NCBI RefSeq assembly: GCF_028368995.1
Contig: NZ_JAQNDL010000003.1
Coordinates: 2,624,001 to 2,688,000, forward strand
Source: Nannocystis bainbridge
GTDB taxonomy: Bacteria; Myxococcota_A; Polyangia; Nannocystales; Nannocystaceae
Length of the DNA: 64,000 nucleotides
Reading direction: 5' to 3'
Within the stretch, counting starts at the first letter, position 1, and each line of letters starts with the position of its first letter. Positions 726-59,702 of the stretch are shown piece by piece. Under the pieces are notes generated by a model. That model did no database searches, was not told where the DNA came from, and saw nothing but the letters and a program-made list of their open reading frames with translations. The translations under genes and the position numbers were made by a program.

Positions 726-2096
726 ATGCTCCTCGCGCCCGTGACCCGGCTCCGCTCCCTCGCCGTCTTCGTCGTCGCCTTCGCGGTGCTCGCGGTGCTC
801 GCGGGCAAGGACCTGCTGCAGCCGAGCGCCAACAATCACCACGCGCACATGGCCCAGGGCTGGCTCGAAGGTCGGCTCGCGCTCCCGGGCGAGCCGCCGG
901 GCTACCCGCGCAACTTCGACGACTGGGGCCGCGTCCACAGCCTCACCCTCAAGGACGGCACCGTCCTGCGCGGCTTCCCGTGCCGCACCCCGGCCTGCGT
1001 CGACCGGCGCCGGCGCGAGCGCATCGAGAGCTTCCGCGCCACCGACGGTCGCGTCCACGAAGTCCCGCTCGCGCAGGTCGCCGCGCGCGGCGGCACCTGG
1101 TACGTGACCTTTCCGCCAGGTCCGGCGCTGATCATGTTGCCCGGCGTCGCCCTGCTCGGCCTCGGCTTCCCCGACATCCTGCTCACCGTCGTCGTCGGCG
1201 CGCTGATCCCCGCGTTTCTGCTGCGCCTGCTCGAGCGCGTCCGCCCCGGCCGCACGCGCGAGCACCTGCTCGCCTGCGTCGCCTGGACCCTCGCCAGCCC
1301 GGCCTGCTTCGTCGCCGCCCACGGCAGCGTGTGGTTCACCGCGCAGGTCCTCGCGGCCATGTTCCTCGTGCTGCACATCGGCGCCGCGTGGGCCGCCGAG
1401 CGCCCGCTCCGCGCTGGTCTGTGGCTCGGCCTCGCCGCCGCCTGTCGCCCGCAGGTCGCGTTCGCGCTGCCGTTCTTCCTGCTCGAGTGGCGCCGCTTCG
1501 ATCGCCGGCCCGCCACGCTGCTGCGCTTCTTCGCCCCGCTGGCGCTGATCGGCGCCGCGCTGGCGCTGCTCAACTGGGCCCGCTTCGACGACATCTTCGA
1601 GTTCGGCCACCGCTACCTCGAGATCCGCTGGCAGGCGCGGATCCAGGAGCACGGGATGTTCGGCCTGCACTACCTGTGGCGCAACCTCGAGTGCATGGTC
1701 TGGCTGTGGCCGCAGATCCAGCTGTCACCGCTGCACGTGCGCTGGTCGATCCACGGCATGGGCCTCTTGATCGGCTCACCGTGGCTGCTGTGCCTGCTCG
1801 CCGCCCGCGATCCGCTGCCGCAGCGGTGGGGCCTCGTGCTCGCCGCCAGCGCCGTCGCAGTGCCCGCGCTGCTGTATCAGAACAGCGGCCAGGTCCAGTT
1901 CTCATACCGCTTCGCGCTCGATTTCCTGCCGTTCGTGCTGGTCCTGCTGGTCGCCGGCGGCGGCGCGCGCAGCCGGTGGTTCATGCCGCTCGTGCTCGCC
2001 TCGGCCGCTCTGCAGCTTTACGGCGCATGGCTGTTCCAGCGCGCCCCGGGCCGGCTGTTCGTCGCCGACCCGTGGTGGCCGTTCGCGCCGGAGTGA
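726..2096 (+). CDS. Polytopic membrane protein, probable GT-C-type glycosyltransferase
   Basis: About 10 hydrophobic segments, a soluble loop after TM1, and motifs YVTFPPGPA, GSVWFTAQV and QFSYRFALD. Start taken at ATG 726 within ORF 6..2096; the function is inferred. Confidence 0.6.
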   Translation: MLLAPVTRLRSLAVFVVAFAVLAVLAGKDLLQPSANNHHAHMAQGWLEGRLALPGEPPGYPRNFDDWGRVHSLTLKDGTVLRGFPCRTPACVDRRRRERIESFRATDGRVHEVPLAQVAARGGTWYVTFPPGPALIMLPGVALLGLGFPDILLTVVVGALIPAFLLRLLERVRPGRTREHLLACVAWTLASPACFVAAHGSVWFTAQVLAAMFLVLHIGAAWAAERPLRAGLWLGLAAACRPQVAFALPFFLLEWRRFDRRPATLLRFFAPLALIGAALALLNWARFDDIFEFGHRYLEIRWQARIQEHGMFGLHYLWRNLECMVWLWPQIQLSPLHVRWSIHGMGLLIGSPWLLCLLAARDPLPQRWGLVLAASAVAVPALLYQNSGQVQFSYRFALDFLPFVLVLLVAGGGARSRWFMPLVLASAALQLYGAWLFQRAPGRLFVADPWWPFAPE

Positions 2097-2281
2097 AGCT
2101 CGCCCGGCGCTCCGTCGCCGAACCCGCAGCTCGCCGGACCGGCTCCTGGAGACCAGCCCGGCGAACTCGAGTCACAGCACGTCTCGCGTGACTCACTGCG
2201 AAGCGACCGCCGCCTCATCGGCGAGAAGAGGCGAGGATGACCTCGAGCTGGCGCGCGGCGGAGCCAGCCGTCGCCCTCGAG

Positions 2282-4066
2282 TCAGCGCAGCTCGACCGTC
2301 GCCCCGACCGCGTGCAGCAGCTCCTGGTGCGCCATCGCGGCCTCGCGGGCGACCGCCGCCTTGATCAGCGTCGGCGCGGCCTCGACCAGGTCCTTGGCCT
2401 CCTTGAGCCCGAGCCCGGTGATGGCGCGCACCTCCTTGATCACCGAGATCTTGTTCGGCCCGCACACCTGCAGGAACAGGTCGACCTCGGCCGCCACGCC
2501 CCGCTCCGCCTCGCGCAGCTCGACGGCCGCCCCGAGCGCGACGAGCTGCTGCGCCAGCGCGCTCGCCTCGCTGCGCGGCAGCCCCGAGCGCACCACCGCG
2601 CCGGCCGTCTCCGACATGTCCTTGGACTCCTTGAGCCCGAGCCCGGTCACCTCGCGGATCAGCTTGATCACCATGATCTTCTGCGGCCCGCAGTCGTTCA
2701 GCACCACGTCGATCGGCGTCAGGTCGTCGTCCTCGTCCTCGTCCAGCGCCTGGCCGCGGATCTCCACCCGCGCGCCCGCGGCCGTCAGCGCCTCCGCGAG
2801 CCTGCGCGCCTCGTCCCCGCGCAGGCCCTCCTTGATCATGACGTCGGTCGACTCGGACAAGTCCTTGGCGTCCTTGAGCCCGAGCCCCGTAGCCTCGCGG
2901 ATCAGCTTGATCACGCTGATCTTGTTCTCGCCGTGGTGGCGCAAGATCACCCCGAAGCCGCGGCTCGGCTCGGGCAGCGCTGCCGGCGGCGGCGGGGCTG
3001 CGGCACGGAGCTCGACCTGTGCGCCCACGAGCAGCAGCGCCTGCTGGAGCACCCGCGCATCGAACTCGCCCACGCCCTGCTTGATCACCGAGTCGGCGGC
3101 CTCGGACAGGTCCTTGGCGTCCTTGAGCCCGAGCGTGGTGTGGTCGCGGATGACCTTGATGACGTTGATCTTGTTCGGCCCGTGGTGCTGCAGCACCACG
3201 TCGAAGCGCGAGCCCGACGCGAATTGCGGCGTCGCTGTCGGCGCCGCACGTGGCGCCCCGCGGACCGACACCTGCGCGCCCACGGCTGCCAGCGCCCGCT
3301 CGAGCGCCCGCGCCTCCGGCTCGTCCAGGCCTTGTCGGATCACCACGTCGATCGACTCGGACAGATCCTTGGCCTCCTTCAGCCCGAGCCCGGTGGCCTC
3401 GCGGACCAGCTTGACGACATCGATCTTGCGCGTGCCGAAGTGGTGGAGGATCACCGCGAAGCCGTCCGCAGGCGCGCTCGCCGGGGCCGCGCCGCCGGTC
3501 ACCAGGGTCGGCGTTGCGCTGCTGCCCGTCGCGCCCCACGTCACCGCCGCCGACGCTCCGCTTGTCTCGCGCTCCGCCGGCGCGCTGCCGTCGTGCCCGC
3601 GGACCTCGACGATCGCCCCGGCCTCGACCAACTCGTGGCGCAGCGCCTCTGCCTCGTCCTGGGCGAGCCGCCGCTTCAGCAGGCACGGCGCGTCGTCGAC
3701 CAGCTCGACCGCCTCGCGCAGCCCGAGGCCCATCATCATCTTCAGCGCGCGCACGACGTTGATCTTGTTGTCGCCGCGGTCGCGCAGGTACACGTCGAAG
3801 AACGCCGGCGCTGGCGCGGCGCCGTGGGTCCGCAGCTCGACCGTCGCGCCGACGGCCACCAGCTTGACGCGCAGCGCCTCGGCCAGCGCCGGGGCGATCC
3901 GCGTCCGGATCGCGCTCGGGGCCCGGGCCACCAGCTCGGCGGCCGCGGCCGCCTCGAGGCCCGTCATCGCCCGCACCGCCTCGGCCACCGCCGCCGGGTT
4001 CGCCCCGGCTTCGCGCAGGATCACGTCCTGCGGGACAAATTCGCCCGTCTGGCCTCCGCCCGTCAT
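2282..4066 (-). CDS. Protein of seven tandem ribosomal bL12 (L7/L12) C-terminal domains
   Basis: Seven units of about 67 aa matching F-D-V-x-L...K-I-x-V-I-K-x-I-R-x-x-T-G-L-G-L-K-E-A-K-D-L...G-A-x-V-E-L-R. GGAGG RBS precedes ATG 4066. No bL12 N-terminal dimerisation domain. Confidence 0.9.
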   Translation of the reverse strand: MTGGGQTGEFVPQDVILREAGANPAAVAEAVRAMTGLEAAAAAELVARAPSAIRTRIAPALAEALRVKLVAVGATVELRTHGAAPAPAFFDVYLRDRGDNKINVVRALKMMMGLGLREAVELVDDAPCLLKRRLAQDEAEALRHELVEAGAIVEVRGHDGSAPAERETSGASAAVTWGATGSSATPTLVTGGAAPASAPADGFAVILHHFGTRKIDVVKLVREATGLGLKEAKDLSESIDVVIRQGLDEPEARALERALAAVGAQVSVRGAPRAAPTATPQFASGSRFDVVLQHHGPNKINVIKVIRDHTTLGLKDAKDLSEAADSVIKQGVGEFDARVLQQALLLVGAQVELRAAAPPPPAALPEPSRGFGVILRHHGENKISVIKLIREATGLGLKDAKDLSESTDVMIKEGLRGDEARRLAEALTAAGARVEIRGQALDEDEDDDLTPIDVVLNDCGPQKIMVIKLIREVTGLGLKESKDMSETAGAVVRSGLPRSEASALAQQLVALGAAVELREAERGVAAEVDLFLQVCGPNKISVIKEVRAITGLGLKEAKDLVEAAPTLIKAAVAREAAMAHQELLHAVGATVELR

Positions 4067-4296
4067 CGCTCGACCTCCGGGGCCGACGATACCCGAATCA
4101 CCGCGGCACCGTCGCGTCCGCGGACACGGGCGTGTTCGCACCGAGCACCCCGTCGGTGGTCTCGCCCCCCACACCGCGTCCCGGGCGCGATCTCCCGCCA
4201 GCGCCGGGCCGTCCCGCTGCTGCGCTCGCCGGGTCGCTCGAGCAATCCCCCTCGCGCCTCGGCCGACTTCGCCCCGCACCCGGTCGTATCACCTCA

Positions 4297-4345
4297 GGAC
4301 ATGTCCTCAAGAACATATCCTCAAGGACATGCCCCTTCAGACATC

Positions 4346-4348
<3 letters not shown>
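4297..4348. repeat. 14-bp-period GGACATGTCC array (4 units)
   Basis: CATG/CATA/CATG/CATC cores at 4300, 4314, 4328 and 4342. Confidence 0.85.
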
Positions 4349-5824
<1,476 letters not shown>

Positions 5825-5845
5825 CCAGGCCACTGTAGCGCGAAG

Positions 5846-5883
5846 CACTGAAATGTCAGTGCTGCATCACTGAGATTTAAGTG
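5846..5883. promoter_or_regulatory. Two tandem palindromic activator-binding sites (candidate UAS)
   Basis: CACTGA-aatg-TCAGTG (5846-5861) and CACTGA-gatt-TAAGTG (5868-5883) start 22 bp apart, between the activator and the ferredoxin. Confidence 0.65.
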
Positions 5884-5955
5884 CGATCGACTCGGTGCGT
5901 CGCCGCACGGCCCGCAAGCCCCTGTTTTGCAAGCCCTTCTCCTCGCTGGGTCCGA

Positions 5956-5971
5956 CGGCGCGAGGCGTGCT
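5956..5971 (+). promoter_or_regulatory. Candidate sigma54 -24/-12 promoter
   Basis: CGGCGCG-AGGC-GTGCT (GG-N10-GC) about 30 bp upstream of the ferredoxin ATG. Confidence 0.55.
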
Positions 5972-5999
5972 CAGGGCTGCCCCAGGAGACAGATTTTTC

Positions 6000-6302
6000 A
6001 TGCCGCATGTCATCACCCGTCATTGCGTCGGCACCTGCGACACGGTTTGCGTCGAGGCCTGCCCGGTCGAGTGCATCCACGGTCCCATCCCGCACGCGAC
6101 GCTGCGCGCGGTCCCTGCTGCCGAGCGCGGCGTGCGGTTCCCCGGGGTCCAGCTCTACATCGATCCGGACGAATGCATCGACTGCGGCGCGTGCCTCGGG
6201 CAGTGCCCGGTCTCGGCCATTCACATGGACTGCGACGTCCCGGGCGAGCTGCGGGACGACATCGAGGTCAATGCGCGCTTCTTCGGCCGCAAGGTGCGGT
6301 GA
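6000..6302 (+). CDS. Dicluster Fe-S ferredoxin
   Basis: MPHVITRHCVGTCDTVCVEACPVECI and YIDPDECIDCGACLGQCPVSAI. Confidence 0.9.
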   Translation: MPHVITRHCVGTCDTVCVEACPVECIHGPIPHATLRAVPAAERGVRFPGVQLYIDPDECIDCGACLGQCPVSAIHMDCDVPGELRDDIEVNARFFGRKVR

Positions 6303-6368
6303 ATTGCGCCGACGCCGCGGCCGATTGGGCGCGTGACAGTCGTCGCGCGGGGACCCTACACTCTCGGC

Positions 6369-7142
6369 GTGCTTCGTCGCGTCGTCGCCGCTCGCTATGT
6401 CGTTCCGTTGCGGGAGGGCGGCTCGTTACCCGGCGTCGTCGAGGCCGACGACGGCCGCTCCTACGTCGTGAAGTTCCGCGCCGCTGGCCAGGGAGCGCGC
6501 GCTCTGGTCGCCGAGATCGTGGTCGGCGAGCTGGGCCGCACGCTCGGCTTGCCGGTGCCGGAGCTGGTGATCGTCGAGCTCGACGCGGGCGTCGGCCGCA
6601 ACGAGGGCGACCCCGAGATCCGCGACCTCGTGGTGGCGAGCGCCGGCGACAACGTCGGCATGACTTTCTTGGCCAGCGCGATCGGCTTCGACCCCGCGGC
6701 CCGGCCGAAGCTCGATCCGTCGCTCGCCGCCCGCACCGTCGCCTTCGACGCCTTCGCCCAGAACATGGACCGCACGGCCAAGAACACCAACCTGCTGTGG
6801 TGCGCCGGCAAGCTGTGGCTCATCGATCACGGCGCGGCGCTCTACTGGCAGCACGACTGGGACGGCGGCCTCGCCGGCGTCGACTCCAAGTTCCCGCTGA
6901 TCGCCAACCACGTGCTGCTCCCGTGGGCCAGCCCCATCGCGGCCGAGGCCGAGTGGTTGACCGCGGGCCTCACCGACGCGGCGATCGACGCGGCCACCGC
7001 GGCGGTGCCCGAGGCGTGGTGGACGGCCCCGCCCGCGCTGCCGCCTGACGAGTTCCGGGCCGCCTTCACTGCCCGTCTGCGAGCCCGCCGCGACGCCGCG
7101 GCCGTCTACCTGGAGGAGGCCGACCGTGCGCGCGCCGTTTGA
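6369..7142 (+). CDS. HipA-like kinase (HipA_2-type)
   Basis: LREGGSLP, YVVKFR, AE, NMDRTAKNTN and LIDHG kinase motifs. Start is 6333 or 6369. Confidence 0.85.
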   Translation: MLRRVVAARYVVPLREGGSLPGVVEADDGRSYVVKFRAAGQGARALVAEIVVGELGRTLGLPVPELVIVELDAGVGRNEGDPEIRDLVVASAGDNVGMTFLASAIGFDPAARPKLDPSLAARTVAFDAFAQNMDRTAKNTNLLWCAGKLWLIDHGAALYWQHDWDGGLAGVDSKFPLIANHVLLPWASPIAAEAEWLTAGLTDAAIDAATAAVPEAWWTAPPALPPDEFRAAFTARLRARRDAAAVYLEEADRARAV

Positions 7143-7503
7143 TTACGCGATCGTCCGGGTGGTCCCGCGGGTCGAGCGGGAGGAGTTCGTCAACGTGGGC
7201 GTCATCGTCCACGCGCCGACCCTCGGCTTCCTCGGCTGCGCCCTCGCCCTCGACCGCCACCGCGTGCACGCCCTCGCCGACACCGTCGACCTCGAGGCGC
7301 TCACCCGCCACTTGGACGCCTTCCGCGCGGTCTGCTACGGCGACCAGGGCGCCGGCTCGATCGCCGCCCTGCCGATCTCCGAGCGCTTCCACTGGCTGGT
7401 CGCCCCGCGCAGCACCATCATCCAGACCTCCGCGGTCCACGGCGGCGTGTGCACCGACGCGACCTTCGCTCTGCGCGACCTGTTTAAAAAACGCGTGGTC
7501 TGA
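7126..7503 (+). CDS. DUF3037-family protein
   Basis: FDYAIVRVVPRVEREEFVNVGVI and RFHWLVAPRSTIIQTS; overlaps the end of the kinase gene. Confidence 0.88.
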   Translation: MRAPFDYAIVRVVPRVEREEFVNVGVIVHAPTLGFLGCALALDRHRVHALADTVDLEALTRHLDAFRAVCYGDQGAGSIAALPISERFHWLVAPRSTIIQTSAVHGGVCTDATFALRDLFKKRVV

Positions 7504-8054
7504 GCGGCGCGCGAGCCGGCTCGCAAGCATCGTGCGAGAGGACCGCGTGCGGCCAGCGCGGCGCATCGCATCCACGTGCGAGCAGGCGGCGCGCCGCCCC
7601 ACCTCGTCGGTCGCGCGCGAGCGACTCGCCCGGCGCTGCCGGCAATGCTTCGACTCTGCGCGAGCGATCGCTGCGCCGTGCCAGAGGTTCGATGGAGGCG
7701 AGGCGTCGCGGCGCGACCGCCCTCGACGCATGGCCGCGAGTCGCGGCGACCGCAGCGAGGCGTGAATCTTCGATGCGGCCGCGCGCGAGGCATCGCCGTC
7801 CGAATCGCCTCGACCTCCTGCGAGGCGTCGCTTCCGCCGCATGCGGCCCGGCCGCGCCAGCGCTCGAGCGACTCCAACCTTATGCGAGTACGCGGGGCAT
7901 GCCTTCGTCGCGCGGCCCGCTCGCCGTGGACGCGGGCTGCGGGTGCTGAACTCTACGTCTCGGCCCACCCCGTGACGAGCACCGCGCGGTCGGCAGCGAC
8001 AGGCTCGCTGCGCCGACGGCGAGCCGCATGGTTATCCGCAAAGAGGATTCATCC

Positions 8055-8591
8055 ATGCGCAAAGCATCGATCATCACCGCTTCTCTCCTCGCGCTCGTCG
8101 GCACGCTCGCCGTCGCCGCCCCGCCGATGTTCAAGGCCGCCACCACCTTCAACGACGACGGCCTCACCTTGACCGTCGCGGGCAGCCTGTCGGGCCTCCC
8201 GAGCGGCGACCTCGAGTTCAAGCTGTCGGCCACCGGCACCGAGACCGTGGTGTGCGGCGTCCCGGGCGTCGTCGACCCGCCGCCGGCCGAGGTGGTGCTG
8301 GCCGGCTCCAAGGTGGTGACGGTCCCGGCGAACGGAGGCGTGGGCGGCACGTTCGCCGACCTCGCGTCCCTGGCCCCGGCGGCCCCGGCGTGCCCGCAGG
8401 CCGACGGCGAGGCGATCGCGGCCCAGCACGACATCGCGTTCACCAAGGCGTCGATCGAGATCCGCCCGGTCCAGCTCGACCCGGCGCTGCCCCCCGCGAA
8501 GACCGTGCGGTGCATCCAGTGCACCTTCAAGGCCCCCACGATCGACGGCCCGGCCAAGCCGCAGCAGTGCTTGACCCTGTCCGCGTGCTGA
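8055..8591 (+). CDS. Secreted Cys-containing hypothetical protein
   Basis: GAGG RBS, signal peptide MRKASIITASLLALVGTLAVA, coding-like codon bias. Confidence 0.75.
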   Translation: MRKASIITASLLALVGTLAVAAPPMFKAATTFNDDGLTLTVAGSLSGLPSGDLEFKLSATGTETVVCGVPGVVDPPPAEVVLAGSKVVTVPANGGVGGTFADLASLAPAAPACPQADGEAIAAQHDIAFTKASIEIRPVQLDPALPPAKTVRCIQCTFKAPTIDGPAKPQQCLTLSAC

Positions 8592-8740: not shown

Positions 8741-8820
8741 CGACATGTCTCTCGAGACATGCCCAATCGCGCATGCCCTTCAGGACATGCCCGTCAGAGC
8801 ATGTCCGTCGGGCCATCTGC
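8741..8820. repeat. 14-bp-period GACATG array (6 units)
   Basis: Cores at 8744, 8758, 8772, 8786, 8800 and 8814, between convergent genes. Confidence 0.9.
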
Positions 8821-8823
8821 GTC

Positions 8824-10194
<1,371 letters not shown>

Positions 10195-10427
10195 GGAGAG
10201 GTTCTCAGCGGCCCGCTGAGGGCCATGTCTTCGCCCGGGCGGTGCGATGCGACCGCGAGTCCAGGCCCGGAGGCCGATATGCTCGGCTCGCCAGACTCGC
10301 GGGGGTCGGCGCCAATCAAGGCGCAGGCCGAGGCGCAGGCGACCTCGCGCCGCGGACGAAAGACGCGCGGACGGGTACCATGCCTCGGCGGCCGACGCAA
10401 CGACGCGGCCAGACGGTCGCGTCGAGC

Positions 10428-10892
10428 TCAGCGACGCTCGGTGGCGATGTTGACCACGATCGAGGAGCCCTTGAGGTCGGCGCCGTTCAGCGCCTCGATG
10501 ACCCGGGGGGCGTCCTTGCGATTGCCCATGGTGACAAAGCCGAACCCGCGCGAAGCGCCGGTCTCTCGCTCGGTCATGACGACCGCGTCGGCGACCGGGC
10601 CGTAGTTGGCGAATGCATTGCGGAGGTCGCTCGCGGTGGTGCTGCTGCTCAAGCTGCCGACGAACAGGCGCACCGGGATCGTCGCGGCCGAGCGCTCCTG
10701 GCCCGGATTCTCGATCGCCCGCATCGCATCCTCGATCGAGGGGAGCGAGCCCGTGAGGTCCTCGGCGGTAGCGACAGGGATCTCCCGCGGACCGCGCTCG
10801 CGGCGGGCCTCGCGGGCCTGCGCCTTCTCTTGCTGCTTCTTGGCTTTATTGGCCTCGCGGGATCGCTTCCCGGAAGAGTAGTAGTTGCTCAC
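10428..10892 (-). CDS. RRM RNA-binding protein with basic N-terminal extension
   Basis: RNP2 LFVGSL and RNP1 RGFGFVTM; GGAG RBS before GTG 10892. Confidence 0.9.
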   Translation of the reverse strand: MSNYYSSGKRSREANKAKKQQEKAQAREARRERGPREIPVATAEDLTGSLPSIEDAMRAIENPGQERSAATIPVRLFVGSLSSSTTASDLRNAFANYGPVADAVVMTERETGASRGFGFVTMGNRKDAPRVIEALNGADLKGSSIVVNIATERR

Positions 10893-11131
10893 GTCTGGTC
10901 TCCCTGGTGAAGGTCGCGCGCGTGACAGCGGGAAGTGTGATATTTGTTCAAATGCGTCTCGAGGGTTGTCGGCGAACGATCGCCCGGGTCCGTGCAGCTT
11001 ACGGCAAAAACCGCCGCGGCGCCGCACCCTTCTCGCCGGCACAGGCGCCGGTCCGCATACCACGGCCGCCCTGCCCTTGTGACGGGCGTTTGCGGCGCCT
11101 GCGTTCGCTTGCGCACACGCCGGCCTTGCGC

Positions 11132-11794
11132 TCACGCGGGGCCGCGGTCCAGCGGGAACACGGCCACGGTGCACAGCCGGTTGCCGAGGCGGTCGCCGAT
11201 CGCCACGGACCGCTGCTCACGAGGCATCAGCCGCAGCCCGCGCAGGCTGGCGGCGGACGACCATACGCCGAGATCGTGCACGGCGACCTCGGCGTCGCCG
11301 GTGAACAGCACCAGCACGGCGGCGCCGTGGCGGATGTGCGGGTCGGCGGCCAGCTTGTCGATGTCCTTCCAGACAGGTCGCTGGAGGGCGCTGGCGTAGG
11401 CGCGGTTGGGCCCGCGCTCGTTGTGCTGGGCGACGACCTTGACCTCGAGCCAGGCGGCGTCGACCAGCTCGACCGCGTCGGTCGGGGCGAACAGCCCGAC
11501 CTGCGCCGCGGGGTCGACCAGCGGCCTGCCACCTGGCGTGACGACCATGTCGCAACGGACACCCTCGGAGCGGCGCCGCAGGATCCGGTCGCGCGGGAAC
11601 CTGACCTCGGCCGTCACGCCGTAGCCGGCCCCCCGCAGGCCCTCGCGCAGGACCGGGTGCAGCTCGAGCTCGCTGCGGGCGTCGAGGCCCCGGACCGCCT
11701 GCTCGAGCTCGACCTCGGCCGACGCGGCCCCGAGCCCCGCCACCAGGGCGTCGGCGAGGTCGTCCCAGCGCCAGTCGATCGCGGTCGTGTTCAC
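11132..11794 (-). CDS. Hypothetical protein, possible PD-(D/E)xK nuclease fold
   Basis: E...E-V...RCDMVV...WLEVK arrangement. Confidence 0.6.
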   Translation of the reverse strand: MNTTAIDWRWDDLADALVAGLGAASAEVELEQAVRGLDARSELELHPVLREGLRGAGYGVTAEVRFPRDRILRRRSEGVRCDMVVTPGGRPLVDPAAQVGLFAPTDAVELVDAAWLEVKVVAQHNERGPNRAYASALQRPVWKDIDKLAADPHIRHGAAVLVLFTGDAEVAVHDLGVWSSAASLRGLRLMPREQRSVAIGDRLGNRLCTVAVFPLDRGPA

Positions 11795-12086
11795 GGCGGG
11801 CGAGCTTAGCGCTCGCCCTCCGCCGCGCCCGCACCCGCCCGCAGCGCCGCGACGGACGCGAAGATTCGCCGCCCTCGCCCCGCCGCCGAGGTCTGACTCA
11901 CACGCCGCGGCGCTCGCGTCGCAGGGCCGCGCGGCGCCTCGCCATCAACCTGTCTCTTCAGACATCTCACCGCCTCGCTGCGGTCGTCGGCTCGTTCGTC
12001 GTCAGCGACGGCTGTGCGGAGCGCGCGCTTGCGGCTCGCGACGGCCCTCGGCTATGCCTCGCGCTCCCCGACAGGAAGGTCCCCCC

Positions 12087-13094
12087 ATGTCTCTGCTCTC
12101 CCCGGGCGCCCTGCTCCGCTACGAGATGGCCGACTTCGACGCCTCCGACAATTACGAATTCCAGATCCTCGAGACCGACGATCAACTCGTGCTGTCGAGC
12201 GCCTTCGAAGAAGGCGAGCCGGAGGCCGTGATCGCCTTCTCGAACGAGAGCCTGACGGACAGCCGCACCATCGCCGTGCTGTCGCAAGGGTCGTGGCTGT
12301 CCGCCGCGCTCGAAGAGCCGACCCGCGACGACGAGTGTGACCGCCTCGACGCCGACCTGCCGCCGTTCCTGCTCAGCCGCACGCAGCTGATGGAGCTGCG
12401 GGCCGGGGCCACGCGGCTGCGGCGGGAGTGGGCGCCCCCCGGCAGCCAGCCGGGGCAGCTGACGCTGAAGGAGCGGGTGGTCGTCGAGGTCGAGATCGAC
12501 GACGAGCCGCAGGAGTTCACGGCGCTGGTGGCCGCCGGCGACGGGGTCGAGGTGACCGTGATCGACGACGAGGCGTGGCCGCTGGTGGTCGAGCGCATCG
12601 AGGGCGACAACTTCTGGCGCCTGCTCGCGCTCGACCACGGCGAGCTCGGCGACGGCGAGAACGACGACGACGACGACCTGCCGCCGCCCGAGCCCGCCGG
12701 CCCGCTCGCGGCCACCGGCCAGATCGGCAGCGACGCGTTCGTGGCCCTGTGCCAGCGCCTCGGCGTCAGCGGCATGGACATGGACTACCAGGGCTCGCGC
12801 TTCTCGCTGCTCGACGCCGAGCGCAAGATCGTCATCTCCGCCGAGTACAAGATCGTCCTGGTCGCCATGCCCGGCGGGGTGCTTCGCCGCGCTCACGTGT
12901 TCGATCGCTACATCCCCGACCAGGTGCTGGGCCCGCTCACCAGTGACGACCCCGTCGAACAACCCGGCACCCTGAAGGACGGCCTCGCCGCCGCCGAGAA
13001 GCTGGCCGAACGCGCCGGCGCCGACGTGCTCTACCCCGACGCCCTCGGCCCGATGTACATCGCCCTCTTCAACGTCCGCGCCCTCGCGGACTGA
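12087..13094 (+). CDS. Acidic two-domain hypothetical protein
   Basis: AGGAAGG RBS, coding-like bias and an acidic/Pro linker (ENDDDDDLPPPEP). Confidence 0.75.
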   Translation: MSLLSPGALLRYEMADFDASDNYEFQILETDDQLVLSSAFEEGEPEAVIAFSNESLTDSRTIAVLSQGSWLSAALEEPTRDDECDRLDADLPPFLLSRTQLMELRAGATRLRREWAPPGSQPGQLTLKERVVVEVEIDDEPQEFTALVAAGDGVEVTVIDDEAWPLVVERIEGDNFWRLLALDHGELGDGENDDDDDLPPPEPAGPLAATGQIGSDAFVALCQRLGVSGMDMDYQGSRFSLLDAERKIVISAEYKIVLVAMPGGVLRRAHVFDRYIPDQVLGPLTSDDPVEQPGTLKDGLAAAEKLAERAGADVLYPDALGPMYIALFNVRALAD

Positions 13095-15381: not shown

Positions 15382-15570
15382 GCACATGTCCGATGGGACA
15401 TGTCATCGCGGCTCTCCACGCGCGATGACGCCTGTCCTCGGGGACATGCCATTCGCCGGCGAGCCCAGGCACCCCGGCCCGACGGGCCATGTCATCGCGG
15501 CTCTCCAAGTTCGATGACGCCGATCCTCGGGGACATGTCACTCGCCAGCGATCCCCGGCGCCCCGGCCGA
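15382..15570. repeat. 89-bp tandem duplication carrying GACATG units and a hairpin
   Basis: CATGTCATCGCGGCTCTCCA at 15399 and 15488; GGGGACATG cores at 15445 and 15534. Confidence 0.85.
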
Positions 15571-42411: not shown

Positions 42412-42570
42412 AGGCATGTCCCCGAGGACAGGTCGACGCCACGCCGAGGTCGAGCCCGCTGGACCCGCGCCACAGGTGCGGTGGTGCATGTCCCGAGGGA
42501 CAGGCGAGCCGACGCGACTGACATGTCCCGAGGGACATACTCGATCAAGATGTCTCGAAGGACAGATCGC
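42412..42570. repeat. Four GACAT/GACAG motif pairs at 14-bp spacing
   Basis: Cores at 42415/42429, 42487/42501, 42522/42536 and 42549/42563. Confidence 0.75.
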
Positions 42571-43706: not shown

Positions 43707-43912
43707 GCTCACGGGGCTGTCGAACGAAAATTCCAAGCCGCCGCGACATGAAGCGACGGCCCCAGCTCACGGAGCGGACGCACGGCATGCGCGGCCGAGG
43801 CGGGTGCGCCGGCGACCACGCGGTGAAGCGCACGCGCGTGGTGCCGACGCGATCTCGCAGGCGCGACGCGTGAGCGCGAGCCGCCCGGCGAGAGGTCCGC
43901 GGTAGCTCCAGA

Positions 43913-43936
43913 GGACATGTCCTTCGGGACATCTTG
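43913..43936. repeat. GGACATGTCC pair
   Basis: GGACATGTCC-ttcg-GGACATCTTG. Confidence 0.7.
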
Positions 43937-45920: not shown

Positions 45921-45984
45921 TGCTGTCCCCAGGGACATTGCCGCCAGGACATGCTGTTTCGGGCATGTCCTCGGGGACATGCCC
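45919..45984. repeat. 14-bp-period GGACATG array (5 units)
   Basis: Cores at 45922, 45936, 45950, 45964 and 45978. Confidence 0.85.
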
Positions 45985-46876
45985 CGAGGTGTGGGTGATC
46001 GACGCGACGGCGCTGCTGTTCCGCGCCTACTACGGGATGCCGGCCAGGCTGTCGCCGGCGGGCGAGCACGTCGGCGCGGTGCTGGGGCTCGGGCACCTGC
46101 TGCGCGGGCTGCTGCGGCGGGCGCCGGAGCGGGTGGTGCTGGTGTTCGACGCCGGGCGCATGACGTTTCGCAACCGCATCGACCCGCGCTACAAGGCCAA
46201 CCGTGGCGAGCCGCCGCCCGACCTGGCGCCGCAGTTCGAGCTGGCGCGGCGGCTCGGCGCGGCGGCCGGGTTCGTGGCGCTGAGCGTGCCCGACTTCGAG
46301 GCCGACGACCTGATGGCGACGCTGGCCCGCGGGGCGGCGGCGGCCGGCCTGCGCACGCGGCTGCTGAGCGTCGACAAGGACCTGTGCCAGCTCGTATGCG
46401 ACGAGTCGCCCGGGGTGGTGCTCGAGGACCCGCGCACGCAGGCGGTCTGCGACGCGGCCGGGGTGCAGCAGCGCATGGGCGTGCGGCCGTCGCAGGTGGT
46501 CGACTACATGGCGCTGGTCGGCGACACCAGCGACAACGTGCCCGGGGTCGCAGGCGTGGGGCCCAAGGCGGCCCAGGCCCTCATCGCCGCGTTCGGCGAC
46601 CTCGATTCGCTGTACGCCTCGCTCGGGCAGGTCGCCACGCTGCCGCTGCGCGGGGCCAAGGGGCTCTCGGCCAGGCTCGAGGCCGGGCGCGAGGCGGCCT
46701 TCCTCGCGCGCACGCTGGTGCGGCTCCACGACGCGGTCCCGCTCGGCGCGCTCGACCTACACGCGCACACGCGCTGGCGCGGGCCAGGCGAGGACGCGGA
46801 GGAATTCTTCGCCGCGCTCGGCAGCCCGGGCGCGCTCCGCGGGTTCAGGTCGATCGCGGCGCAGGATCGTGCGTGA
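45920..46876 (+). CDS. Stand-alone 5'-3' exonuclease/flap endonuclease (Pol I N-terminal-like)
   Basis: VID..LLFRAYY, VFD, YKANR, EADD, DKD and GDTSDNVPGVAGVGPK. Start is 45920, 45965 or 45989. Confidence 0.9.
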   Translation: MLSPGTLPPGHAVSGMSSGTCPEVWVIDATALLFRAYYGMPARLSPAGEHVGAVLGLGHLLRGLLRRAPERVVLVFDAGRMTFRNRIDPRYKANRGEPPPDLAPQFELARRLGAAAGFVALSVPDFEADDLMATLARGAAAAGLRTRLLSVDKDLCQLVCDESPGVVLEDPRTQAVCDAAGVQQRMGVRPSQVVDYMALVGDTSDNVPGVAGVGPKAAQALIAAFGDLDSLYASLGQVATLPLRGAKGLSARLEAGREAAFLARTLVRLHDAVPLGALDLHAHTRWRGPGEDAEEFFAALGSPGALRGFRSIAAQDRA

Positions 46877-59641: not shown

Positions 59642-59664
59642 GGCCCCGTCTCACCTGCACTTCC

Positions 59665-59702
59665 GGGCATGTCCTGGGGGACATGCCCTTCGGGACATCG
59701 AC
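59665..59702. repeat. 14-bp-period GACATG array (3 units)
   Basis: Cores at 59668, 59682 and 59696, between convergent genes. Confidence 0.85.

Follow-up and report, generated by a model that had tools for sequence, protein, structure and literature searches.

Locus and domain architecture

Within a 64,000-nt stretch of the Nannocystis bainbridge genome (contig NZ_JAQNDL010000003.1, positions 2,624,001 to 2,688,000; hereafter the window, whose numbering is used unless stated otherwise), a minus-strand open reading frame extends from an ATG at 4066 to a stop at 2282-2284 and encodes P0001, a 594-residue protein built as a tandem array of seven domains of the type found at the C-terminus of ribosomal protein bL12 (C-terminal domain, CTD). 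The host genome (G000; 11.05 Mb in 5 contigs) has Nannocystis exedens, N. punicea and N. pusilla as its nearest named relatives, and the array gene lies on its contig C2 (G000 C2:2626285-2628066). A GGAGG ribosome-binding site at 4078-4074, spaced 7 nt from the ATG, agrees with the original prediction from the DNA alone that the gene has its own ribosome-binding site. GC at the three codon positions (0.76/0.47/0.96) follows the pattern of the neighbouring genes. In 6/6 Nannocystis genomes compared, the ATG, the ribosome-binding site and a 5' element of 16 nt (GATTCGGGTATCGTCG) are conserved, and conservation ends upstream of this element. Scanning 1900-4500 for sigma-70 promoters and intrinsic terminators returned 0 and 0, respectively. 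In a look-up of sequencing runs with the array gene no RNA runs were listed, and the top DNA runs were soil metagenomes with at most 0.44 of the sampled words.

The Pfam family PF00542 (Ribosomal_L12 CTD) matches P0001 in seven stretches (E 1.9e-138), and PF16320 (L12_N) has no match in the Pfam scan even at E<=1. The NCBIfam bL12 model TIGR00855 is matched through its CTD part alone (positions 56-124 of 125). The seven bL12-CTD units that had been read from the translation are confirmed, and the profile check proposed with them (6-7 Ribosomal_L12 matches and no L12_N) came out at seven and zero. The other four Pfam listings for P0001 are weak and partial, none is an effector or an NTPase, and PF00542 is the sole credible family. 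No signal peptide is evident by eye at the N-terminus. With unit borders set by phmmer, using the CTD of the genome's own bL12 as the query, the features of the gene are as follows (pLDDT, predicted local distance difference test score of the models described below; N-module, the N-terminal part with units 1 and 2):

2282..4066, minus strand: 594-aa seven-unit bL12-CTD array gene (P0001), from translation, seven PF00542 matches, codon-position GC and Nannocystis orthologues
4074..4099, minus strand: GGAGG ribosome-binding site (4078-4074) and conserved 5' element GATTCGGGTATCGTCG (4099-4084), in 6/6 Nannocystis genomes
3830..4030, minus strand: unit 1, aa 13-79; CTD fold, basic helix 4/5 face lost, pLDDT >90 in the N-module model
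3599..3799, minus strand: unit 2, aa 90-156; CTD fold, altered face (K, R, K, R kept by charge, last-Lys position V/I/L)
3461..3598, minus strand: long disordered linker, aa 157-202; pLDDT 24-42, conserved motif from alignments
3260..3460, minus strand: unit 3, aa 203-269; canonical, 'middle' class
3005..3205, minus strand: unit 4, aa 288-354; canonical, 'middle' class, long branch in the host genome
2756..2956, minus strand: unit 5, aa 371-437; canonical, 'middle' class
2513..2713, minus strand: unit 6, aa 452-518; canonical, 'penultimate' class, acidic linker ahead
2285..2485, minus strand: unit 7, aa 528-594 (529-594 by phmmer); canonical, 'last' class, groups with the own bL12 CTD in the unit tree

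The helix 4/5 face reads KIDVVKLVR, KINVIKVIR, KISVIKLIR, KIMVIKLIR and KISVIKEVR in units 3-7 in that order, and LGLK[ED][AS]K comes after each. The corresponding stretches are KINVVRALK / LGLREAV in unit 2 and PAAVAEAVR / LEAAAAA in unit 1. Units 3-7 thus keep the motifs, whereas unit 2 has them in part and unit 1 has lost them, as the original prediction had it. The linkers are Ala/Pro-rich, apart from an acidic one (DEDEDDD, ahead of unit 6), which matches the earlier description of the translation. The linker of aa 157-202 carries the motif H-[DE]-x-S-A-P-x-E-R...V-T-W-G, which is conserved across Nannocystis and in a paralogue of the same genome. The isoelectric points (pI) of the units range from 5.3 to 8.7, with unit 1 at 8.7 and the whole protein at 5.64.

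Relation to ribosomal bL12

The genome encodes a true bL12 elsewhere. Its rplL specifies 128 aa with a normal N-terminal domain and stands beside the genome's only uL10 gene (G000:C2:2129121-2130083). This sole rplJ-rplL pair is ~497 kb from the array gene on the same contig, consistent with the earlier placement of the array outside an rplJ-rplL context. Units 3-7 are 43-49% identical to the CTD of this bL12, and they share with bL12 both the CTD fold (template modelling (TM) score of 0.91 and root mean square deviation of 1.1 A to the Escherichia coli structure 1ctf) and the Lys/Arg face of helices 4 and 5. By contrast, the array has seven CTDs per chain, has no dimerisation and uL10-binding domain, lies outside the rplJ-rplL operon and evolves fast, whereas the true bL12 CTD is identical among the five genomes compared. 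Of the features that define bL12, the PF00542-type CTD is present (seven stretches); the adjoining rplJ is absent, and the layout of one PF16320 domain, one hinge and one CTD in ~120-130 aa is not that of a 594-aa array. Thus, P0001 is not a bL12 orthologue, and the name 'ribosomal protein L7/L12' under which public databases file proteins of this type is wrong for the array gene. The earlier description of the protein as having no ribosome anchor holds for the uL10-binding domain, as PF16320 is absent, but not in general, as the conserved N-terminal module could be an anchor of another kind.

Predicted structure

An AlphaFold2 model of P0001, built on an alignment of seven orthologues, has seven beta-alpha-alpha-beta-alpha-beta units with pLDDT of ~80-90, linkers below 50 and a predicted TM score (pTM) of 0.24. 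From this pTM and the low-confidence linkers, P0001 is predicted to be beads on a string with no fixed arrangement of the units. The top Foldseek match is 1ctf, the E. coli bL12 CTD (target TM 0.91, 55% identity). A search of the PDB by sequence with P0001 returned bL12 chains only, with no tandem form among the solved structures. In a separate model of residues 1-200, built on 18 sequences, the pLDDT exceeds 90 in both unit 1 and unit 2, and residues 163-200 are disordered; the pTM is 0.44, and thus the two units are not predicted to form a single rigid body.

A likeness to ClpS had been suggested, and it stands at the level of the fold: Foldseek matches to ClpS have E values of 0.07-0.3, target TM of 0.63-0.74 and 12-18% identity. 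The two share a related alpha/beta fold, but the array sequences are plainly bL12-type and the ClpS family has no match in the Pfam scan of P0001. With no such match and only a weak fold-level likeness, P0001 is not identified as a ClpS. A complex prediction of the host's own EF-G (residues 1-300, 21-row alignment) with unit 7 (7-row alignment), made with no control runs, gave a score of 0.19 (mark 0.32) and is used neither for nor against binding.

Distribution and unit classes

Full-length orthologues of 593-597 aa, with 61-68% identity by BLASTP, occur in named Nannocystis genomes, and the frame is open in 5/6 large Nannocystis genomes (61-70% identity). The array is full-length in 4/10 other congeneric genomes (G001, G003, G005 and G010). 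In a fifth (G007) a frameshift after unit 2 splits the gene, and one database record (P0013) is truncated. The congeneric genomes without the array are fragmentary assemblies (64-88% complete) or bearers of other arrays. Searches with the N-terminal 180 residues gave no comparable match in the order's 62 other genomes, nor in 400 more genomes sampled from the phylum, for each of which only 8 candidates were scored. When a profile of the N-module was run on 1.84 billion representative proteins, only seven clusters matched over the whole module at their own N-terminus (P0006, P0073, P0014, P0016, P0015, P0012 and P0020; E 4e-150 to 3e-64), and an ESM Atlas look-up of residues 1-200 returned L12-type clusters only.

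Members of this family carry 4, 5, 6 or 7 units, the 4-6-unit relatives being metagenomic. Every member has the same two specialised N-terminal units and conserved disordered linker, followed by 2-5 canonical units. In a maximum-likelihood tree of 100 units over 67 columns, in which many forks are unresolved, the units fall into five classes, each orthologous among 17 proteins: unit 1, unit 2, middle, penultimate and last. The last class groups with the CTD of the host's own bL12. The middle class is expandable, with one unit in 5-unit proteins and three in Nannocystis, and a DNA repeat with a 249-nt period that spans units 3-5 (2765-3414, 73% matches) fits this expansion.

The host genome also encodes a three-unit paralogue (G000:C2:2797616-2798524, minus strand; L029 8617-9507), which consists of an N-module 74% identical to that of P0001, then a Pro/Ser-rich linker and a single further unit whose face is degraded (R, R and Q at Lys positions). 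Its neighbours encode an AraC-type regulator, a VIT1-like protein, a methyltransferase, an extracytoplasmic function (ECF) sigma factor and a kinase, which give no functional hint.

Conservation and relative rates

Conservation of the face was taken from an alignment of all 98 units of the 17 family proteins, with 64 units (47 middle and 17 last) as the canonical set. In these 64 units, the equivalents of own-bL12 K72, K77, R80, K89, K92, D93 and E96 are kept at 94-100%, and the wider set of K72, I73, V75, I76, K77, R80, G87, L88, K89, K92, D93 and E96 at 91-100%. The conserved strip sits on the helices equivalent to bL12 helices 4 and 5. Unit 2 keeps the charges across the family, with K and R swapped and the last Lys replaced by V/I/L, while unit 1 has P, E, A and A at four of the basic face positions and instead retains invariant residues of its own (R56, PALAE 59-63, L65, R66, L69, E77, R79 and H81 in 18 sequences). 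Since units 1 and 2 fold confidently in the models without the strip residues, the CTD fold has no need of them.

Ratios of nonsynonymous to synonymous substitution rates (dN/dS) were estimated by the method of Nei and Gojobori (NG86) among five genomes, with neighbouring genes of similar dS treated by the same script:

Whole array gene: NG86 dN/dS 0.50-0.87
Units 3-7 outside the helix 4/5 strip: NG86 dN/dS 0.65-1.16
Units 3-7 inside the helix 4/5 strip: NG86 dN/dS 0.36-0.61
Units 1-2: NG86 dN/dS 0.12-0.61
Five neighbouring genes: NG86 dN/dS 0.06-0.39

These values are read as relative rates, because NG86 underestimates dS at 96% GC at third codon positions (GC3); positive selection is not claimed, the sequences being too few for site models. 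Units 1 and 2 are the slowest-evolving of the array (dN 0.05-0.13), and the true bL12 CTD has dN = 0, with no amino-acid change among the same five genomes. Judging from these rates, with the strip low, the rest near-neutral and the true bL12 CTD invariant, the canonical units have shed all ribosomal constraints but the factor-binding face and the fold. By the same comparison, the N-terminal module is under its own, stronger constraint.

A candidate mimic of the stalk heads

In bacteria, translational GTPases universally enter the ribosome through the bL12 head, which has been investigated almost exclusively in its role within the stalk. The favoured reading, given a probability of about 0.42, is that the array is a cytoplasmic, flexible mimic of the stalk heads that would bind translational GTPases off the ribosome. 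The canonical units very probably work like bL12 heads, and P0001 probably competes with the ribosome for ligands of the helix 4/5 surface. Translational GTPases are taken as these ligands because the partners of the real head are the simplest candidates. The passages of PMC6753160 on NMR (nuclear magnetic resonance) mapping and mutagenesis describe a positively charged site on the bL12 CTD, on helices 4 and 5, that is shared by IF2, EF-Tu, EF-G and RF3.

The proposed mechanism would include: (i) exposure of an intact helix 4/5 surface by each of units 3-7 on flexible tethers, away from uL10, (ii) binding of IF2, EF-Tu, EF-G and RF3 by these units in competition with the real stalk, (iii) service of the array as a factor buffer, sponge or holding pool, (iv) damping or re-partitioning of translation when the array is made, and (v) a second specificity, for regulation or placement, in the N-terminal two units and conserved linker, which would act as a separate, slower-evolving module. 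A fixed face with a drifting remainder is what a stalk mimic presenting that face would be expected to leave in the sequences, and the array gene is retained in conserved synteny in 5/5 other large Nannocystis genomes (frameshifted in one). The earlier inference of a stalk mimic keeps its footing in the seven CTDs, the lack of a bL12 N-domain, the non-ribosomal context and the face fixed in 17 members. Its 'multivalent sequestration' does not stand as worded: by our own reasoning a chain of several weak sites gives no avidity for monomeric factors, and thus such sequestration needs a multivalent or anchored context.

Several points weigh against the mimic. The contacts between the CTD and the factors on the ribosome are weak and transient; with weak sites and no avidity, a pure sponge would therefore need high expression. 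Tandem heads would pay off, we reason, only if the chain is tethered, the ligand is oligomeric or the protein is abundant. The same strip is found in the CTDs of exported-looking proteins with a signal peptide or lipobox by eye (P0031, P0040 and P0053) and of proteins with extracellular-type fn3, dockerin and adhesin domains (P0146, P0160 and P0199), and there are no translational GTPases outside the cell, where proteins of this type would sit; this sample is biased, because the proteins were retrieved through the strip itself. The array also appears dispensable in at least some strains, given the frameshift in G007 and the truncation of P0013, and its fast evolution and changing unit number would fit a role in conflict equally well.

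P0060 likewise ends in a bL12 CTD with an intact strip and is seemingly a lipoprotein, secreted or at the cell surface.

If the mimic is real, it would be a new way to control or protect translation, one that acts through the docking step of the factors and not through the ribosome or the factors themselves. Such an array would surprise a translation specialist, would be a ready-made reagent for studies of head-factor binding and would open a direct experimental route. Whatever its function, the array is the tip of a larger group of tandem bL12-head proteins, found in many clusters of public protein collections, which the name 'ribosomal protein L7/L12', usual where a source names them at all, hides.

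The host genome has two identical tuf genes and the fusA of the str operon, and in addition a divergent EF-Tu-like gene (G000:C1:3118164-3119291, minus strand; 518 bits, cut-off 522) and a second full EF-G (C2:1702355-1704439, minus strand). It is possible that the divergent EF-Tu-like protein and the second EF-G are special partners for the altered face of unit 2.

Tandem arrays elsewhere and the decoy reading

Searches from P0001 found many other tandem CTD arrays in public protein collections. These include: (i) CTD-only arrays with 6-7 CTDs (P0074, P0075 and P0077), (ii) arrays of 5-6 CTDs with LRV/HEAT repeats (P0019 and P0023), (iii) four nearly identical CTDs, in the metagenomic P0021 and at 8362-9521 of L028 (G009:C3, from a related Nannocystis assembly), (iv) fusions to TIR domains (P0044, P0061, P0086, P0120 and P0212), and (v) fusions to a KAP NTPase (P0072 and P0181), a Ser/Thr kinase (P0096), PNP_UDP_1 with pentapeptide repeats (P0110) or an Hsp70-like domain (P0187 and P0188). 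Further fusion partners are LRR, SPFH, FGE-sulfatase, fn3, dockerin and adhesin domains. The four-unit L028 array is an independent, recent expansion. It has Pro/Thr linkers, and its coding sequence falls in two reading frames, perhaps through a frameshift or a mistake in assembly. As a class, tandem CTD arrays are widespread, both as stand-alone proteins and in fusions to TIR, kinase or NTPase domains, and have not been studied. Literature searches, with subscription journals and supplements outside their reach, found no paper on free tandem bL12-CTD arrays.

Related uses of the domain are described for phages and conflict systems. Phage proteins carry a bL12 domain outside the ribosomal operon, often in larger proteins, and keep the residues for contact with EF-G, EF-Tu and uL11, but they have one domain each, compared to seven in the chromosomal, genus-syntenic array; no tandem arrays are described in the passages of that paper, supplements aside (Mizuno et al. 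2019, PMC6375957). P0001 itself matches several PHROGs of unknown function. In conflict systems, an L12/ClpS insert of vWA proteins is called 'multimerizing' in the relevant passage of Kaur et al. 2020 (PMC7159879). These proteins resemble the array in having the same domain, often tandem and off the ribosome, and differ in their effector or NTPase domains, of which P0001 has none. One cyanobacterial orthocaspase bears Ribosomal_L12, according to a passage in PMC8283722, and in the consulted text of a 2024 review of extraribosomal roles bL12 appears in one section only, on the stalk and autoregulation (PMC10931766).

These proteins bear on an unlikely though serious alternative, in which a free array would soak up phage or toxin proteins that grip the bL12 head before they reach the ribosomes. 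By analogy, P0001 might, with similarly low probability, be a stalk decoy, the bacterial counterpart of the 'integrated decoy' of plant immunity, with the TIR, KAP-NTPase, kinase and nucleosidase fusions elsewhere being the bait-triggered sensing arms of immune proteins. The decoy draws on those fusions, the Hsp70-like ones included, and on the vWA insert, and it would explain an evolution that is near-neutral or faster outside an invariant face, a lineage-variable unit number and loss in some strains, although an NG86 dN/dS near 1 at 96% GC3 is no proof of positive selection. An oligomeric binder would, by our reasoning, gain avidity from tandem units. PDB entry 8phj, by its title a CRISPR-associated nuclease on the 70S ribosome, includes a bL12 CTD chain, and this nuclease is reportedly captured by the stalk. 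A candidate defence pair of PADLOC (PDC-M66A/B) lies two genes from the array; P0001, however, has no effector domain and no PADLOC match, and its stable chromosomal synteny is not obviously that of a mobile element or defence island. Intact faces would bind the cell's own factors too, and to our knowledge no stalk-binding phage protein of myxobacteria has been reported, which also counts against a decoy.

A 135-aa bL12-like paralogue (L091, G000:C5:8504-8908, minus strand; PF00542 E 1.3e-10) has a degraded helix 4/5 face and an N-terminal part that resembles the bL12 N-terminal domain by eye, with no Pfam N-domain match. Its gene is flanked by one for a kinase-TIR-kinase protein (8898-12188) and one for a kinase-TPR protein (5251-8142), and the paralogue may be a 'dead-head' subunit of the stalk or belong to a conflict-type locus. 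A 377-aa open reading frame (G000:C2:1542335-1543468, minus strand) has a weak single CTD match (E 7e-6) and an N-terminus that resembles, by eye, the TIGR02996 'repeat-companion' domain, which precedes 3-4 CTDs in P0026 and P0027.

Less likely readings: anchoring, scaffolding and decay

A rather doubtful reading places the array on a machine and not in free solution: the N-terminal units and/or the linker would dock on the ribosome (e.g., near uL11 or rRNA) or on another machine, and the 2-5 heads would raise the local concentration of GTPases. The lack of avidity for monomers and the invariant N-module keep this reading alive. A constant N-module with a variable number of heads follows an anchor-plus-antenna logic, the N-module evolves more slowly (dN/dS 0.12-0.61) than the heads, and tandem weak sites would, as reasoned above, be useful only when tethered. 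Unit 1 (pI 8.7) retains an Arg-rich invariant set of its own, and the conserved motif in the disordered linker is like a short docking motif. Yet the model gives no support for units 1 and 2 packing as a single body (pTM 0.44), and P0001 has no domain known for uL10 binding. The 'factor pool' of the archaeal and eukaryotic P-stalk, the subject of PMC7768734, is similar in that several flexible heads gather translational GTPases, but it is non-homologous, ribosome-anchored and binds through short C-terminal tails.

Slightly less credible is a generic scaffold or multimerising protein unrelated to translation, in which the CTD fold would be reused as a neutral module for protein-protein contacts and the strip would serve folding or self-association. 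The multimerising treatment of the L12/ClpS insert (PMC7159879, in the passage cited above) would suit it, as would the occurrence of the same strip in CTDs of apparently extracytoplasmic proteins and the finding of no functional link with neighbouring genes; however, confident folds are predicted for units 1 and 2, which do without the strip residues, the retained residues are the exposed Lys/Arg of the mapped factor site and no fixed packing between units is predicted (pTM 0.24). A decaying or functionless duplicate of rplL sequence is very improbable: the high dN/dS, the G007 frameshift, the truncated P0013 and the narrow taxonomic range would fit it, but the 594-597-aa frame is open in 5/6 large Nannocystis genomes, the unit classes are orthologous across 17 proteins, the invariant strip and slow N-module show selection and the codon-position GC is that of a coding gene.

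Genomic neighbourhood

The next gene upstream of the array is conserved with it:

4346..5848, minus strand: sigma-54 enhancer-binding protein (AAA+ with a helix-turn-helix domain, N-terminal residues 1-185 unassigned); PF00158 E 1.5e-66, synteny in 5/5 other genomes

The upstream synteny in the five other genomes comprises, in order, a DEAD-box helicase, a small secreted protein, DUF3037, a HipA_2 kinase, a ferredoxin, the sigma-54 enhancer-binding protein and the array. In the same tblastn comparison these neighbours are 63-96% identical, compared to 60-68% for the array. Downstream, the genes at 19-672 and 750-2096 lack conservation among the other genomes. The flanking genes are chromosomal and syntenic in five other genomes, which speaks against a phage or prophage origin, and no functional tie of the array to its neighbours was found at the host locus or at that of the paralogue.

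Control of the array gene by the adjoining sigma-54 activator is not supported, because the gap between the two genes varies from 62 nt to ~1.6 kb among genomes and no sigma-54 promoter was found. The pattern TGGCAC-N5-TTGC with up to 2 mismatches has no match within 4067-4345; window-wide it has 52 matches compared to 59.7 expected and is thus uninformative. With a looser -24/-12 pattern, no conserved match turned up in the six upstream regions.

The HipA_2 kinase and DUF3037 genes overlap (6333-7503, plus strand), match the PADLOC candidate pair PDC-M66A/B (E 2.8e-19 and 1.2e-9) and are 88-96% identical in the five other Nannocystis genomes. The palindrome GGACATGTCC(T)NAGG recurs at dispersed intergenic sites, frequently as tandem copies with a 14-nt period, and looks to be a repeat of the REP (repetitive extragenic palindromic) type, with 27 matches compared to 3.7 expected at up to 3 mismatches. 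It occurs at 4292-4334, 8778-8806, 15382-15410, 42484-42533, 43908-43927, 45961-45989 and 59660-59693, the first of these clusters sitting between the sigma-54 activator gene and the array gene.

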